From: an uncultured Candidatus Rokubacteria bacterium
GTDB taxonomy: Bacteria; Methylomirabilota; Methylomirabilia; Rokubacteriales; CSP1-6
Assembly (NCBI GenBank): GCA_963747235.1
Contig: CAVVEU010000029.1
Coordinates: 128,001 to 192,000 of the forward strand
Direction of reading: 5' to 3'
DNA length: 64,000 bases
Under the pieces are notes generated by a model. The model was not told where the DNA came from, searched no databases, and was given only the letters and a program-made list of their open reading frames with translations. A program made the position numbers and the translations under genes. Shown here piece after piece: positions 3,367 to 10,103 of this stretch; position 1 is the first letter of the stretch; every line of letters starts with the position of its first letter.

Positions 3367-4417
3367 ATGCGATTCGGCCTCTTCTTCCAGGCGTCGGAGC
3401 GGGCCGGCGAGAGCCACGCCCAGCGCTTCACCGAGATGCTCGAGCTGGCCACGCTCGCCGACTCGCTCGGCTTCGACGTGGCCTGGCTCGCCGAGATCCA
3501 CTTCGGCGCCGCCTTCTCGCTGCTCTCCACCCCGCTCATGGCGGTGCCCGCGATCGCCCAGCGCACGAAGCGCATCCGCGTCGGCACCGCGGTGACGCTG
3601 CTGCCGCTGCACCACCCGCTCGCCTGCGCGGAGCAGGCGGCCACCGCGGACATCCTCTCGGGCGGCCGCCTCGAGTTCGGGGTGGGCCGCGGCTCCATTC
3701 CCACCCAGTTCCACGGCTTCCGGGTGCCCGTCTCGGAGAATCGCGCGCGCTTCGCGGAGTGCCTCGACATCATCCGCCTGGCCTGGACGAAGGACCGCTT
3801 CAGCTACGACGGGACGTTCTACCAGATCGAGAACCTCTCGGTGGTGCCGAAGCCGCTCCAGCGCCCGCACCCGCCCATCCGGGTGGCCGTGCACACGCCG
3901 GAGAGCTTCGCCCACATCGCGGAGCTGGGCGTGCCCATCTACTCGGGCACGACGACCACCCCGCTGCCGCTGCTGCGCGAGTGCATGGCCGCGTACCGGG
4001 AGAAGCTCGCCGCGGCCGGGCACGCGTGGGGCCCCGAGCAGATGGCGCTGATGCAGCCGCTGCACATCGGGGCCACCTCCGCGGCGGCGCGCGACGCGAT
4101 GCGGCCGGGGGTGATGCAGTACTACAAGAACCTGGAGACGATCTTCTCGAGCCTGCCCGACTCCTACGCGCGATCACCTGCCCCGGCTCAAGTACATCCG
4201 GGAGACGATCGCCGATCTGCCCTACGAGAAGTTCTGCCGCGACCAGGCCGTGTTCGGCGACGCCGCGGAGGTGGTGGACCGGCTGCAGCGCGCGAAGGAA
4301 GAGTTCGGCCTCTCGCAGATCATCGGCTGGTTCGACCAGGGCGCGATGCTGCCGCGCGCCGAGGTCGAGCGCGCGATGCGCACCTTCGCCGAGCAGGTGA
4401 TGCCGAAGCTCGGCTAG
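3367..4417 (+). CDS. LLM-class flavin-dependent oxidoreductase; indel near 4172
   Basis: GFDVAWLAEIHF, RIRVGTAV, SGGRLEFGVGRG and PKPLQRPHPPI. The C-terminus FAEQVMPKLG* is in a shifted frame. Confidence 0.85.
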
Positions 4418-5679
4418 CCCGCGTAGATCTTCTTCATCTCGCCGGTCGCCCAGGCGACCGCGTCCTCCGCCTTCATGCCCTGGATGCTCTTGGCGAACAT
4501 GTCGACCAGGATGTACTTCGACAGCGCTTCCGTCGCCTTGCGCCCGGGAGGCCCGGCGAAGCCGACCTGTCGCGCGTACTGCAGGGTCTCGGGAAACACC
4601 GCCGTCTTCGGGTCCTTCTTCCACAGGGCGTGGTCGCGGTAGCTCTTGGTGCCGGGGATGCCGAACGTGTCCATGATCTCGAAGTACTTGTCGTACTGCG
4701 CGCGGTCCATGTACCAGCGCACGAAGTCCTTCGCGACCTTCTGGTTCTTCGAGTACTTCATCACGCAGGAGTTGTAGCAGGGCAGGAAGTAGAAGCGGCC
4801 CGCGGGGCCGGGCGGATAGTGGCCGTGGTTCGTGCCCTTGTAGACGTCGGGGAACTTGGCCCGCGCCGCGATGTAGATCGACGGCGCATTGCCGGTGAGC
4901 GAGATCTCCGAGGAGAGAAACGCGCGGTTGTTGTTGCTGTCGTCCCACGCGAGCCCGCCCTCGTCGAAGCAGTCCTTCCACGCCGCCAGCGTGAACTTCA
5001 CGGCCTCGACCGTGTTCTTGCTGTTCAGCACGACCGTCTGGCCGTCCTTCCCGACTTCCATCCCGCCCCACATCCAGACGATCGGGTACGCCCAGGCGTT
5101 GGGATCGTTGAGGCTGTGCCCGAACGCCTGGCCGAACGGCCGGCCCTTCGCCTTCATGGCGCGGCCCACCTTGCGGAAGTCGTCCCAGGTCTTCGGATAC
5201 TCGAGGCCCGCTTCCTTGAACCAGTCTTCCCGGTAGTTGACCGCCCACGAGATGATGAAGTACGGAACGCCGACCCAGCGCCCGCCACTCGTCAGGCAGT
5301 TGCTCTTGGGGAGGTCGTACCACCCACCCTGCTGGCCGCCGATCGCCTCGGCGACGTCGGTCATGTCGACGAGGCTGTTCTCGTAGAGGAGCGGATGATT
5401 GTTCGCGATGGTCACGATGTCGGCGCCGCTCCCGCTCTGGATCGCGGCGGTGACGCGGGCCTGGATGTCGTTCTGATTGATGCGCTCGGCGACGACCTCG
5501 ACGCCCGCCTGCTTGCCGAACTCCTTCGCCTGCTGGTCGAAGAGCTGATCCGCCGCGGGGACGAAGTGCGCCCACTGGAGGACGTGGAGCCGCGTGCCCT
5601 GCGCGAAGGCGGGCGGGTGATGCGCGGCGAGCATGGTGGAGAGGGCGGCGCTGCCGGCGATGAAGCGTCGACGGTTCAT
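4414..5679 (-). CDS. Extracellular solute-binding protein, family 1 (carbohydrate type), Tat-exported
   Basis: MNRRRFI Tat signal with AFA cleavage site; PKTWDDF and WDDSNNNRAF; GGAGG RBS. Confidence 0.88.
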   Translation of the reverse strand: MNRRRFIAGSAALSTMLAAHHPPAFAQGTRLHVLQWAHFVPAADQLFDQQAKEFGKQAGVEVVAERINQNDIQARVTAAIQSGSGADIVTIANNHPLLYENSLVDMTDVAEAIGGQQGGWYDLPKSNCLTSGGRWVGVPYFIISWAVNYREDWFKEAGLEYPKTWDDFRKVGRAMKAKGRPFGQAFGHSLNDPNAWAYPIVWMWGGMEVGKDGQTVVLNSKNTVEAVKFTLAAWKDCFDEGGLAWDDSNNNRAFLSSEISLTGNAPSIYIAARAKFPDVYKGTNHGHYPPGPAGRFYFLPCYNSCVMKYSKNQKVAKDFVRWYMDRAQYDKYFEIMDTFGIPGTKSYRDHALWKKDPKTAVFPETLQYARQVGFAGPPGRKATEALSKYILVDMFAKSIQGMKAEDAVAWATGEMKKIYAG

Positions 5680-5695: not shown

Positions 5696-6403
5696 TCAGG
5701 TGTCCAGAAGGGCGAGCACCTCGTCGGCTCTCCGCACCCGGCCGAACGGACCCTGGAACGAGAGCAGGGTGGCCTCGTGGATCTCGGGTGAGAAGGCGGC
5801 GCACCCGTCGTCGAGCAGCACCACCTCGTAGCCGCGATCGGCGGCGTCGCGCGCGGTGGTCTCCACGCAGACGTTCGTCACGACGCCGCCCACGATCAGG
5901 GACGTGATGCCCATCGAGCGCAGGGCGTGATCGAGCCCCGTCGAGTTGAACGTGCCGTAGGTCGTCTTGTTCACCACGAGCTCGTCCGGCCGCGGCTCGA
6001 GGCTCGCGACGATGCGAGCCCAGGCGTCGCCGCGCGGGGGGATGGCGGCGTCACCGACCGCCGCCCGGTTGGCCGCGTTCCGTTGCTGGAAGATCGGCAT
6101 CAGGTCGCGGCCATCGGGCAGCTCCGAGGCCACGGTGGTGTAGACGACGCGTAGCCCATGGGCCCGGAAGAAGTCGAGCAGCCGACGGAGCGACGGCTCG
6201 ACGACGCCCCGACCGCGCTCCTGGAAGTGGCTCATCACGCCCGGAACGATGGCCTCGCAGGCCCGCGAGAACGGCGAGGCCGGGTTCACGAAGTACTCCT
6301 GCATGTCGATGATCACGAGCGCGGTGGTGCGGGGATCGAGCGCCAGGGGCCCCGCATTGCGGTGGCGCTGAAGGGCCGTGTACTTATCGTGCGCGGTGCT
6401 CAC
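5696..6403 (-). CDS. Isochorismatase-family cysteine hydrolase
   Basis: TALVIIDMQ, the catalytic Lys in VVNK, and GVVTNVCVETTARDA. Confidence 0.9.
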   Translation of the reverse strand: MSTAHDKYTALQRHRNAGPLALDPRTTALVIIDMQEYFVNPASPFSRACEAIVPGVMSHFQERGRGVVEPSLRRLLDFFRAHGLRVVYTTVASELPDGRDLMPIFQQRNAANRAAVGDAAIPPRGDAWARIVASLEPRPDELVVNKTTYGTFNSTGLDHALRSMGITSLIVGGVVTNVCVETTARDAADRGYEVVLLDDGCAAFSPEIHEATLLSFQGPFGRVRRADEVLALLDT

Positions 6404-6481
6404 TATCCTGTCCCCCGTGCCCGGGATACTGCTCCCGGCCCCGGCGACGTGTCAAGAAGAGGAGTACAGTGGGGAGCCAGG

Positions 6482-7745
6482 ATGGACACCCCAGCGCAGA
6501 TCGCTCCTGACAGCTCCAAGCTCGCGGTGGTGATGGTCGGCCTGCCCGGCCCGCGGGAAGAGCTACACCGCGCGCCGCATCGAGCGCTACCTCTCGTGGC
6601 TCGGCTACCGCACCGGCGTCTTCAACGTCGGCGAGTACCGGCGCGCGCGCGTCGGCGCCCAGATGCCGCACAGCTTCTTCGATCCCGACAACGCGCCGGG
6701 CGAGGAGGCGCGCCGGGCGGCCGCGATGGCGGCGCTCGACGACATGGTGGCGTGGCTCACCGACGACGGGCAGGTCGCGATCTACGACGCCACCAACACC
6801 ACGCGCGCGCGCCGCGCGATGGTGCGCGCGCGCTGCGAGCAGGCCGGCTTCCAGGTGCTGTTCATCGAGATCCGTTGTGATGACCCGCACTTCATCGAGG
6901 CCAACATCCGCGACACCAAGCTGTCGTCGCCCGATTACGAGGGCACCGATCCCGACGCGGCGGTGACCGACTTCCGGGCCCGCATCGCGCACTACGAGCG
7001 CGTGTACCAGCCGCTCGACGACGACGAAGGCGCGTACCTGCGCGTCACCGGCTCCGGACGCGACGTCACCGTGAGCAACGTCAACGGCTACCTGGCCGCG
7101 CGCCTCGTGTTCTTCCTGATGAACCTGCACCTGACCGCGCGGCCGATCTGGCTCACCCGCCACGGCGAGAGCGTGTTCAATGTCGCCGGGGTGCTCGGCG
7201 GCGATCCCGACCTGACCCCCGCCGGCCACCGCTACGCCCGATCACTCGCCGAGTTCCTCGACCGGCGCGACCCGGATCGCGACGGCGTGGTGGTCTGGAC
7301 GAGCTCGCTCCGGCGCGCGGTACAGACCGCGGCGCCGCTCGATCGCACGCGGTGGCCGTGGCGCGCGCTCGACGAGATCGACGGCGGCGTCTGCGACAGC
7401 ATGAGCCACGCCCAGATCCAGGAGCGCCTGCCCGAGGAGTACGCGGCGCGCAAGCGCGACAAGTTCACCTATCGCTATCCACGCGGCGAGTCGTACCAGG
7501 ACGTGATCCTGCGCCTCGACCCGGTGGTCATCGAGCTCGAGCGCACGCGCAAGCCGGTGCTGGTCATCGCCCACAACGCGGTGCTCCGCGCGCTCTACGC
7601 GTACTTCCAGGGCCTGCCGCGCGAGCGCTGCCCGTACCTGCCCATTCCGCTGCACACCGTGATCGAGCTGACGCCGCACGCGTACGGCTGCCACGAGACG
7701 CAGATTCCGCTCGAGCCGCGGCTCGACTCGCGCGACGCGCGGTAG
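6482..7745 (+). CDS. Bifunctional 6-phosphofructo-2-kinase/fructose-2,6-bisphosphatase (PFKFB-like); indel near 6545
   Basis: Removing one base gives VMVGLPARGKSY (P-loop), FNVGEYRR and DATN. The C-terminal domain has RHGES, YPRGESYQD, VIAH and PLHTVIELTPHAYGC. Confidence 0.9.
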
Positions 7746-7961
7746 CCCGACCGGCCCGCAGGTTCGGGCACGGCACACGGCCGGATCGGGCAGAAAGTCG
7801 CCCGAGCGGCAGCCACTCCTTCCGAAAGGTCCGTCATGTCGAGATAGTGGGCGGTGGCATGCCCCTTGCCCCAAGGCTCAGAGACGCCCGGCGCGGCCCC
7901 CAAGCGTCGGGCCGGGCGTTCGCCCCTCGTCCAACGGACCACGACTTGGAGGAACGCGATC

Positions 7962-8951
7962 ATGGGCGCGACGAGACGCAGACTGAGCTGGTGGTGGAGC
8001 ATCCTGGCCCTGCCCGGCATCCTGTGGCTTCCGGCGGTCGCCGGAAGCGCGGCGCGGGAGGTGGCCGGCATCATCACCGAGATCCACCCCGGGCGCGGGC
8101 AGGTCGAGGTCAGGTCGGCTGAAGGCGACCGCCGGCGCGCCGCGACACCTCTCCTTGCCCTGAGGAGCGGTGACGAGGTGAGCACGACCGAGGATGCGTG
8201 GGTGATCATCGTGCTGTCCGGCGGGCGTGGAAGCGCGAGAGTCGACGAGGCCCATTCCCCGTTCACGGTTCCCGCCCCGCCGGTCGGGCGCAGCCTGCTT
8301 CACAAGGGACTGCGGGTCCTCGAAGCGAGCTTCGACTTCCTGGGGACGACGACCCCGAGCGATCCGACGTTCGGGCCCCTGGGCACTCGATCAGGGGCGA
8401 AGCCGCCCGTGATCTTGACCCCTCACAATGGCCTCGTGCTCCCCGATTCCCTGACCTTCGAGTGGCGCGGGAGCCCGTCTTCGGCGTACCGCATTCGCAT
8501 CAGCGGGCCCGATGGCCTGGTGTTCGAGCGCACGAATCTCGCCGCGACCCGATTCCAGTACCCTCGGAACGCGCCACCACTCACCGCGGGCGTCCGATAC
8601 GGGTTCCAGCTCCTCCCGCCCTGGGGCCCGCCCCAGGACGTGTGGTTCGAGCTGGTCGACCCGGACCGCGCCCAGACGATCCTCCATGAGCTGCACGACC
8701 TGGAAGATGCGTTCGCCCCTGCCCTGTCACCCGCTTCTCTGGTGACGCTCCGGGCCGGGTTTCTGGCGGGCAACGGTCTGCTGCACGATGCCCGTCGGAC
8801 CCTCATGGAGGAGCTTGCCCGGCAGCCCGATGAGCCCACCCTGCACTTCCTCCTGGGCAACCTCTATGCGCGGCAGGGTCTTCGCTCGGAGGCAATGGAG
8901 TCATTCGCGGAGTCGAGATTTCTCATGAGTGCTGTTGCCAACCCCCGGTAG
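7962..8951 (+). CDS. Secreted hypothetical protein (beta-rich N-terminus, DUF928-like middle, C-terminal TPR-like helix pair)
   Basis: GGAGG RBS before ATG 7962 and a hydrophobic signal. Contains LTFEW...PPLTAGVRY and HFLLGNLYARQG. Domain names are inference. Confidence 0.6.
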   Translation: MGATRRRLSWWWSILALPGILWLPAVAGSAAREVAGIITEIHPGRGQVEVRSAEGDRRRAATPLLALRSGDEVSTTEDAWVIIVLSGGRGSARVDEAHSPFTVPAPPVGRSLLHKGLRVLEASFDFLGTTTPSDPTFGPLGTRSGAKPPVILTPHNGLVLPDSLTFEWRGSPSSAYRIRISGPDGLVFERTNLAATRFQYPRNAPPLTAGVRYGFQLLPPWGPPQDVWFELVDPDRAQTILHELHDLEDAFAPALSPASLVTLRAGFLAGNGLLHDARRTLMEELARQPDEPTLHFLLGNLYARQGLRSEAMESFAESRFLMSAVANPR

Positions 8952-8962
8952 CGCGGCCGGGT

Positions 8963-10103
8963 CTACCGGCTGCCCGGCGTGACGCGGAGGAGGCGGCCGT
9001 TGGGGCTGTCGTCGGTCAGGAGATAGATGGCGCCGTCCGGGCCCTCGCGCACGTCGCGGATGCGCTCGCGGAGCTCCGCCAGGTAGCGCTCCTCCCGCAC
9101 CACGCGGCCGTTCGCGAGCCGCAGCCGCACGAGCCCGCCCGGGGTGAGCGAGCCGACCAGGAGGTCGCCCTTCCAGTCCGCGAACGCGCGGCCCGAGTAG
9201 AAGGTCGCGCCGGACGGCGCGATGACCGGATCCCAGTAGTAGACGGGCTGCTCCATGCCCGGCTTCGCGGTGCCGATCCCGATGCGCGCGCCCGAGTAGT
9301 CCACCCCGTAGGTGATGACCGGCCAGCCGTAGTTCTTGCCCGGCTGCGGGTTGTTGAGCTCGTCGCCGCCGCGCGCGCCGTGCTCCACCGTCCACAGCTC
9401 GCCGCGGGCGTCGAGCGCCGCCGCCTGGACATTGCGATGGCCGTAGGACCAGATCTCCGGCAGCGCGCCGGCGCGACCGACGAACGGATTGTCGCGTGGC
9501 ACCGAGCCGTCCGCGTTGATGCGCACGACCTTGCCGAGCGTCGTCGAGAGATCCTGCGCGCGGTCGCGATGGCCGATAGCGGTCGCCGATCGTGACGAAG
9601 AGCGTGCCGTCCGCGCGGAAGACGAGGCGCGAGCCCCAGTGATTGGGCCCGTCCACCTTCGGCTGCTGGCGCCAGATCACCTGGGTGCCCTCGAGGCCGC
9701 GCTCGCCGAGCCGCCCGCGCGCCACCGCGGTGCCCGCGCCGCCCGGGCCCGGCTCCGAGAACGAGAGGTAGACGAGCTTGTCCTGCGCGAAGCCGGGGCT
9801 GAGCGCCACGTCGAGCAGACCGCCCTGCCCGCGCGCATACACCTCGGGCACGCCGATCAGGGGCGCCGAGAGGCGCCCATCACGGTCGACGATACGCAGG
9901 CGCCCCGGCCGCTCGGTCACGAGGAAGCGCCCGTCGGGCAGCAGCGCCACGCCCCAGGGATGCTCGAGCCCGCGCGCGACGTCGGTGACGGTCGCGGCCA
10001 GCTTGACCGCGGCGGGCGTCGGCGAGCGCGGCGCCTCCTGCGCGAGCGCGGGCAGGACGAGGAGGGCGAGCGCCGGCAGGACGGCCGCGACGCGCCCCGG
10101 CAC
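8963..10103 (-). CDS. PQQ-dependent sugar dehydrogenase (YliI/GdhB family); indel near 9575
   Basis: [41 protein letters not shown] and NYGWP. Confidence 0.9.

Follow-up and report, generated by a model that had tools for sequence, protein, structure and literature searches.

The locus and its reading frames

The gene described here lies on the plus strand at positions 6482-7745 of a 64-kb stretch of DNA (the window) from a metagenome-assembled genome (MAG) of a Rokubacterial soil bacterium (phylum Methylomirabilota). It encodes a bacterial homologue of eukaryotic PFKFB, the bifunctional enzyme 6-phosphofructo-2-kinase/fructose-2,6-bisphosphatase (PFK-2/FBPase-2). Once a frame break close to its 5' end is read through, the coding sequence (CDS) specifies a protein of ~420 amino acids in which a 6PF2K domain is followed by a His_Phos_1 domain. 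Translation from the ATG at 6482 in frame 2 yields MDTPAQIAPDSSKLAVVMVGLP, with the first half of the P-loop (6482..6547, plus strand), and nonsense thereafter. The remainder of the CDS (6549..7745, plus strand) is found in frame 0 and ends with the stop codon TAG at 7743-7745. A TGA at 6531-6533 interrupts this frame, which is open from 6534 onwards and has its first start codon at ATG 6663. From 6549 it reads ARGKSYTARRIERYLSWLGYRTGVFNVGEYRR, with ARGKSYT and FNVGEYRR ahead of FFDPDN, DATNTT, RHGES and YPRGESY, and finishes with PLHTVIELTPHAYGC.

DNA comparison located the break in a CCC run (6545..6547, plus strand) which carries one surplus base relative to the CC of orthologues and thereby shifts the frame by +1. 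Deletion of one base at 6545-6550 joins frames 2 and 0, and the 1264 nt of the gene minus this base correspond to 420 codons plus stop. A preliminary description of this DNA had listed kinase and phosphatase motifs and a ~420-residue protein after correction of one indel; all of these motifs were recovered by translation of the two frames, and the length was confirmed. A putative Shine-Dalgarno sequence, GGGGAG, is suggested by the sequence at 6471..6476 (plus strand), 5 nt upstream of ATG 6482. A scan of positions 6300-7950 for promoter and terminator consensus sequences returned 0 and 0 sites, respectively.

Domain identity and conserved residues

The 403-residue frame-0 translation of the gene, designated P0002, was used for profile searches, and the residue numbers given below refer to it. 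The 6-phosphofructo-2-kinase domain (6PF2K, PF01591; 6546..7136, plus strand) was matched with an E value of 1.1e-69 and 234.6 bits (cut-off 27) over profile positions 22-222 of 223, and a genome-level search agreed. Profile positions 1-21 remained unmatched in P0002 because they are encoded in frame 2. The histidine phosphatase domain of the fructose-2,6-bisphosphatase type (His_Phos_1, PF00300; 7146..7691, plus strand) was matched at residues 205-386 with an E value of 2.1e-38 and 132.4 bits (cut-off 21.7). Kinase and phosphatase domain thus follow one another within a single open frame of 403 residues, which bears out the eukaryote-type domain order proposed earlier, with scores that chance could not produce. 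A phmmer search against the PDB revealed PFKFB3, PFKFB2, PFKFB4-type and PFKFB1 chains at E values from 9.5e-114 to 1.8e-108, all along query residues 4-392; human PFKFB3 (2axn) was matched with an E value of 1.8e-113. Judged by eye from the alignment, the identity to human PFKFB3 is ~50% over the full length.

No NCBIfam model scored above its cut-off for P0002, and CobC-, PspA- and Gpm-type phosphatases appeared below threshold. The family assignment is not new, since NCBI already names related MAG proteins 6-phosphofructo-2-kinase/fructose-2,6-bisphosphatase. JGI's label for relatives, 'broad specificity phosphatase PhoE/predicted kinase', under-describes the bacterial PFKFB relatives. By its profile and alignment matches the window gene is confirmed as a genuine full-length bacterial homologue of eukaryotic PFKFB. 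The bacterial members are core-only proteins with a typical length of 416 amino acids, compared with mostly 450-1000 amino acids in the nearest non-bacterial representatives.

Conservation was analyzed in an alignment of 186 family members, consisting of 44 bacterial rows and 142 other representatives of 50%-identity clusters, among which some unlabelled rows may be bacterial. In the latter group 47 columns reach a conservation of at least 93%. Of these, 44 are retained in frame 0 of the window; the remaining three, which are the M, G and L of VMVGLP, precede the break on its 5' side and were found in frame 2. The protein predicted by reading through the break consequently retains all 47 near-invariant columns of the family. 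The conserved set includes the G and K of the P-loop, R36 and R37 of FNVGEYRR, D85 and N88 of DATN, R209 and H210 of RHGES, R261, E319 of GESY and H347. Conserved arginines of the kinase half occupy positions 36, 37, 60, 94 and 150. The phosphatase residues H210, E281 and H347 are present as well. Among the other representatives they occur in 96%, 129 of 141 and 139 of 141 rows, respectively, and E281 is retained in 44 of 44 and H347 in 43 of 44 bacterial rows. Tauler 1990 and Lin 1992 (as cited in PMC5701083) name in their titles His-258, His-392 and Glu327 as catalytic residues of the rat liver phosphatase; no mention of such residues was found in PMC8780674. At the level of motifs H210, H347 and E281 of the window protein would correspond to His-258, His-392 and Glu327 of that enzyme.

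Pairwise ratios of nonsynonymous to synonymous change (dN/dS, Nei-Gojobori) were 0.24-0.35 between the window gene and seven orthologues and 0.15-0.23 among three pairs of orthologues, although synonymous change is probably underestimated at such a high G+C content of third codon positions (GC3). Beyond the frame break, 398 codons were free of any other lesion. Column conservation and dN/dS therefore indicate purifying selection on both active sites throughout the bacterial clade.

The frame break and the quality of the assembly

At the break the window reads CTGCCCGGCCCG, and the orthologues of the same genus are one base shorter in eight of eight cases. Over a longer stretch, CTGCCCGGCCCGCGGG of the window stands against CTGCC(G/C)GC... 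in the loci L002-L009, where VMVGLPARGKS is unbroken. The orthologous proteins run through the site as QIAPD(S/N)xKLAVVMVGLPARGKS. In Logan contigs from soil metagenomes the base was omitted, at 6545 or 6548, in all three runs that cover the site, with a depth lacking the extra base of 13.8 of 17.1 in run X1 (two contigs), 9.4 of 9.4 in X3 and 6.71 of 6.71 in X18; run X2 has no coverage of the break site. Two other copies of the gene are also split. The PFKFB of a Rokubacteria MAG (L012:4001-5195) is in two frames, and the match in the 30-contig genome G013 (G013:C4:2923-3550) is in two pieces, both at sites that differ from the one in the window. Such differing sites fit assembly error and not a shared ancestral lesion.

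The frequency of frame breaks was determined by segmenting the window according to codon-position GC (GC3 ~0.95) with a seven-state Viterbi model. A switch was counted when both frames were on the same strand and the stop codon of the 5' frame was absent within 60 nt. By this measure the window contains 37 switches in 64 kb, or ~1 per 1.7 kb, compared with 1 in 60 kb of G020:C57, taken from another genome of the genus that is assembled in 110 contigs. The 93 coding segments included 88 frame segments of 22 codons or more, and the accompanying Pfam scan covered 87 of them; the one left out contained a stop. Profiles were found divided between adjacent frames at 12 breaks in nine other genes of the window. 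These were GSDH (1-134 / 136-332), Ala_racemase_N (1-144 / 148-190 / 192-220), Bac_luciferase (26-189 / 204-311), DUF1485 (2-91 / 97-289), Amidase (1-184 / 188-267 / 343-442), DctM (1-188 / 208-292 / 304-411), adh_short (3-64 / 67-190), MFS_1 and Guanylate_cyc. Examples of breaks lie at 9576, 11986, 33110, 33240, 33376, 34296, 36138, 38409, 43845, 44086, 46570, 48831, 59265 and 61807. Outside the window, the ATP-dependent phosphofructokinase (ATP-PFK) of G000, the genome that contains the window, is also split in two frames (G000:C39:51147-52068; L047 and L049, profile positions 2-64 and 58-277).

The +1 break is most likely an indel error in the assembled sequence rather than damage to the gene itself, because of the excess of switches over the control, because orthologues and metagenome contigs are without the base and because other copies are split elsewhere. 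The preliminary description had named a real frameshift at ~6545 as a refutation; the break seen there is most readily put down to the numerous indel errors in this assembly. Apparent pseudogenes of this genome are suspect until they are checked against the reads. In an amidase search across the genus, the best E values were ~1e-116 in the assemblies with the fewest contigs (G000, G008 and G013) and ~1e-160 to 1e-170 in 17 of 18 other assemblies (G005: 2.9e-126); with 18-41 matches per genome this comparison is rich in paralogues and not cleanly readable as a control for splitting.

Distribution and phylogeny

Within the phylum Methylomirabilota the gene was detected in 14 of 251 genomes and in one of 68 genera, which is the genus of the window; there, 13 of the 20 other genomes carry it. 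Of 401 Myxococcota genomes sampled evenly, 82 gave a match at E <= 1e-10. Bacterial homologues had been called sporadic, which understates their frequency. The best named relatives of the window protein are a Methylomirabilota MAG protein, P0065 (84% identity), and the uncultured Rokubacteria contig L012.

Trees were calculated with FastTree on the 186 rows and with an IQ-TREE quick search on 77 of them (LG+C20+F+G4 by posterior mean site frequencies, PMSF; support by the Shimodaira-Hasegawa-like approximate likelihood ratio test, SH-aLRT). Organism names were obtained for 14 of 30 proteins looked up (11 eukaryotic, one from a Myxococcota MAG), and most rows of the trees are unlabelled. Both trees place the genus clade (SH-aLRT 99) within a clade of support 100, which also holds three Polyangiales-named proteins (P0092, P0099 and P0122) and in which P0065 and other near bacterial copies join the window protein. 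All Myxococcota loci together with this clade form one clan (SH-aLRT 93). The nearest neighbours of the clan in the IQ-TREE analysis, with weak support (87), are rows that carry the names of Amoebozoa, Rhodelphis, a plant, a green alga and an oomycete, and fungi and animals form a separate group (99). A phylogeny with eukaryotic PFKFB, which had been proposed as a check, supported the nesting with Polyangiales-named proteins and left the backbone between bacteria and eukaryotes without resolution.

These data support a transfer between Polyangiales-type Myxococcota and an ancestor of part of the Rokubacterial genus, and Myxococcota are the favoured donor. The presence in a single genus, the nesting and the frequency in Myxococcota point to transfer from myxobacteria and not directly from eukaryotes. 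Of the earlier suggestion of an old horizontal transfer, the transfer itself is supported, whereas its proximate source would be Polyangiales-type Myxococcota in both trees.

A second Myxococcota-named PFKFB lineage, P0126 with P0156, was observed apart from the main myxobacterial clan in both trees (89) and is ~54% identical to the window protein. Its placement hints at more than one exchange between bacteria and eukaryotes, or at a backbone that lacks resolution. Three MAG records with PFKFB genes, DATLFG01 (L010), DATIWG01 (L011) and DATHSW01 (L013), bear the titles Limnocylindria, Nitrosotalea and Deferrimicrobiaceae. Over the 70 residues compared, the starts of their PFKFB proteins are identical to those of L005, L002 and L004, respectively, which belong to genomes placed in the genus of the window. 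The titles of these records look mislabelled.

Host genome and gene neighbourhood

The host genome is a 5.57-Mb MAG of 42 contigs which is 88% complete, with an estimated contamination of 4.9%. The gene is located mid-contig among isochorismatase, ABC binding protein and GSDH genes. Its GC3 of 0.88-0.98 matches that of the neighbours, in keeping with the native codon usage noted before. The flanks are shared with L012, where the isochorismatase is 95%, a luciferase-like monooxygenase 96% and the downstream open reading frame (ORF) 78% identical. Conservation of the neighbours with L012 alone means that the genomic context offers no functional hint, and no conserved operon is claimed.

Several differences between the two loci were observed. 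The ABC solute-binding gene at 4414-5679 (minus strand), between the luciferase-like monooxygenase and isochorismatase genes, is absent from the otherwise syntenic L012, and L012 has ~1.2 kb additional DNA between PFKFB and the downstream ORF. The PFKFB neighbourhood is in local flux. The downstream ORF itself (7854-8951, plus strand, 365 amino acids), which has the 78% identical counterpart in L012, gave a weak match to TPR_16 (E 8.8e-4, below cut-off) and was called non-coding by the codon-GC model because of its lower GC3.

Candidate targets and proposed function

The host genome encodes a pyrophosphate-dependent phosphofructokinase (PPi-PFK; G000:C2:108291-109241), which scored 566 bits against the equivalog model NF041103 (cut-off 550) and has GGDD in place of the GGDG of the ATP type. 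Besides the split ATP-PFK-type gene, a class I fructose-bisphosphatase (FBPase; E 1.6e-47) is present; GlpX was not found in this genome, at 88% completeness. PPi-PFK, ATP-PFK and class I FBPase are enzyme classes that respond to fructose 2,6-bisphosphate (Fru-2,6-P2) in eukaryotes.

The data show the membership of the family, the conservation of residues, the distribution, the nesting in the trees and the surplus of frame breaks in this assembly, and from these we infer what the enzyme does, which host enzymes its product targets and from whom the gene came. Fructose-6-phosphate would be phosphorylated at O-2, with ATP, by the N-terminal P-loop kinase domain. Hydrolysis of Fru-2,6-P2 via a phospho-histidine intermediate would fall to the C-terminal histidine phosphatase, and both activities would jointly determine how much Fru-2,6-P2 is present. 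As candidate targets the host has its own PPi-dependent PFK, ATP-PFK and class I FBPase. A horizontal transfer from Polyangiales-type Myxococcota, in which the family is common, would have brought the gene into this single genus, and the +1 break at 6545-6547 would stem from an indel error in an assembly that is rich in errors and probably made from long reads. Overall we consider it probable that the gene encodes a core-only bacterial PFK-2/FBPase-2, with a frameshift due to assembly error, that was acquired horizontally from Polyangiales-type Myxococcota.

Alternative explanations and points against the proposed reading

Several points weigh against this overall reading. In the assembly as it stands the P-loop is divided between frame 2 (VMVGLP) and frame 0 (ARGKS), and the probable long-read origin of the assembly is deduced from its contig number and the pattern of breaks. 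The metagenome runs derive from relatives and may differ from the source sample, the best share of the region's sampled words being 0.35 and that of every run below half. In run X1 a depth of 3.3 of 17.1 at the site is unaccounted for by the contigs lacking the base, and a form carrying the extra base may exist in nature. The trees are unrooted, and their backbone from the clan to the eukaryotic groups is without resolution. The direction of transfer, with Myxococcota as donor, is drawn from distribution and nesting only. L012 aside, the 36 other loci searched gave no match to the window's neighbouring genes. The literature among the matches listed contained no enzyme assay or characterisation of a bacterial PFKFB. 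Bacterial PFKs and FBPases have no known response to Fru-2,6-P2.

Given these points, a real frameshift deserves attention. The gene would then be a recent pseudogene, or it would yield a 360-residue product from ATG 6663 which is without the P-loop and the FNVGEYRR segment and thus kinase-dead, with the phosphatase domain alone intact. Such a reading agrees with the extra base in the assembly, with the lack of a frame-0 start codon between 6534 and 6663, and with the unexplained share of the X1 depth. Loss of the gene may also occur in the genus, as 7 of 20 genomes are without a copy, at a completeness of only 63-92%. Nevertheless, 37 comparable breaks were counted in the same 64 kb against a single one in the control, genes such as those for alanine racemase, amidase and DctM are broken as well, and at the rate given above error alone would be expected to introduce ~0.7 breaks into a gene of 1.26 kb. 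The 398 other codons are lesion-free, and their dN/dS is similar to that among the orthologues. We regard a real frameshift as quite unlikely. A programmed +1 ribosomal frameshift serving regulation would suit a shift within a C/G-rich run near the start of the gene; the unbroken frame in eight of eight orthologues and the different break positions in the two other split copies leave this idea with practically no probability.

An intact but repurposed enzyme, acting on another sugar phosphate or small phospho-metabolite and having no part in the regulation of PFK or FBPase, is unlikely but somewhat less so than a true lesion. It would agree with the lack of an assay of any bacterial member in the literature among the matches listed, with the treatment of Fru-2,6-P2 as eukaryotic in the literature, where one bacterial gene is noted (PMC9721465), and with the absence of the regulatory tails of the eukaryotic isoforms from proteins of typically 416 residues. 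Opposed to it are the retention of all 47 near-invariant columns across the bacterial clade in both domains, the five conserved arginines of the kinase half and the ~50% identity to human PFKFB3 along the whole length (by eye). Contig chimerism had been named as a refutation at the outset. For eukaryotic contamination, or a chimeric contig misbinned into a bacterial MAG, the estimated contamination of the MAG and the protists and fungi that make up the nearest 50%-identity clusters beyond bacteria would speak. Yet the gene is free of introns, its closest relatives are bacterial (70-92% identity), it sits between bacterial-type genes and 13 of the genus's 20 other genomes carry it. Since its GC3 is like that of the flanking bacterial genes and the isochorismatase, the monooxygenase and the downstream ORF recur in L012 with 78-96% identity, contamination and chimerism are excluded for practical purposes, and this explanation is effectively refuted.

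Literature context and significance

Fru-2,6-P2 is treated as a eukaryotic signal in textbooks and in recent papers (PMC9721465, PMC12965863). PMC12965863 describes the system for mammalian cells, and PMC9721465 mentions Desulfovibrio desulfuricans as a bacterial exception with a Fru-2,6-P2 system, citing Rider et al. 2004. Within the literature among the matches listed, no bacterial PFKFB of Myxococcota or Methylomirabilota was described, which does not imply absence from print. New in comparison with that literature are the breadth of the family in Myxococcota and its presence in a single genus of Methylomirabilota.

Within its phylum a conserved PFKFB is confined to one Rokubacterial genus; the family is common in Myxococcota (about a fifth of the sampled genomes), and the gene co-occurs in the host genome with PPi-PFK, ATP-PFK and class I FBPase. 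Because the gene is conserved, frequent in myxobacteria and accompanied by candidate targets, a bacterial use of Fru-2,6-P2 is directly testable. A bolder proposal, to which we assign a low probability, is that Fru-2,6-P2 is not restricted to eukaryotes. In that case a deep and diverse clade of Myxococcota would make it and employ it in the control of PPi-PFK, ATP-PFK and FBPase, the module would have been borrowed by a single Rokubacterial genus, and eukaryotic PFKFB and the myxobacterial clade would share their origin by an ancient transfer in either direction. If true, such a history would be relevant to the contributions that myxobacteria are proposed to have made to the eukaryotic cell.

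Comparison with known systems

Among bacteria, Desulfovibrio desulfuricans is credited with a Fru-2,6-P2 system. The C-terminal half of the window protein is weakly similar to bacterial branch 1 histidine phosphatases (the alpha-ribazole phosphatase CobC, PspA and GpmB), TIGR03162 scoring 79 bits, below its cut-off of 162.9. Unlike the window protein, none of these families has a 6PF2K domain.

Like human PFKFB3, PFKFB2 (5htk), the rat testis isozyme (1bif) and the liver isozyme (1k6m) were matched by the window protein along their catalytic cores, with an identical order of domains. Human PFKFB3 and the related isozymes share with it FNVGEYRR, DATN and RHGE as well as the second His, the Glu within EID(A/G)G and, once the break is read through, GLPARGK(S/T). 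With ~420 amino acids the window protein is without the N- and C-terminal regulatory extensions of eukaryotic PFKFB. In the PDB alignment PFKFB3 has a Ser where the window protein keeps Arg261. This Ser weakens the phosphatase of PFKFB3. Closest of all are the near bacterial copies, P0065 with 84% and the others with 70-75% identity over 97-99% of the query, which have the Pfam architecture and length of the window protein but unbroken frames.

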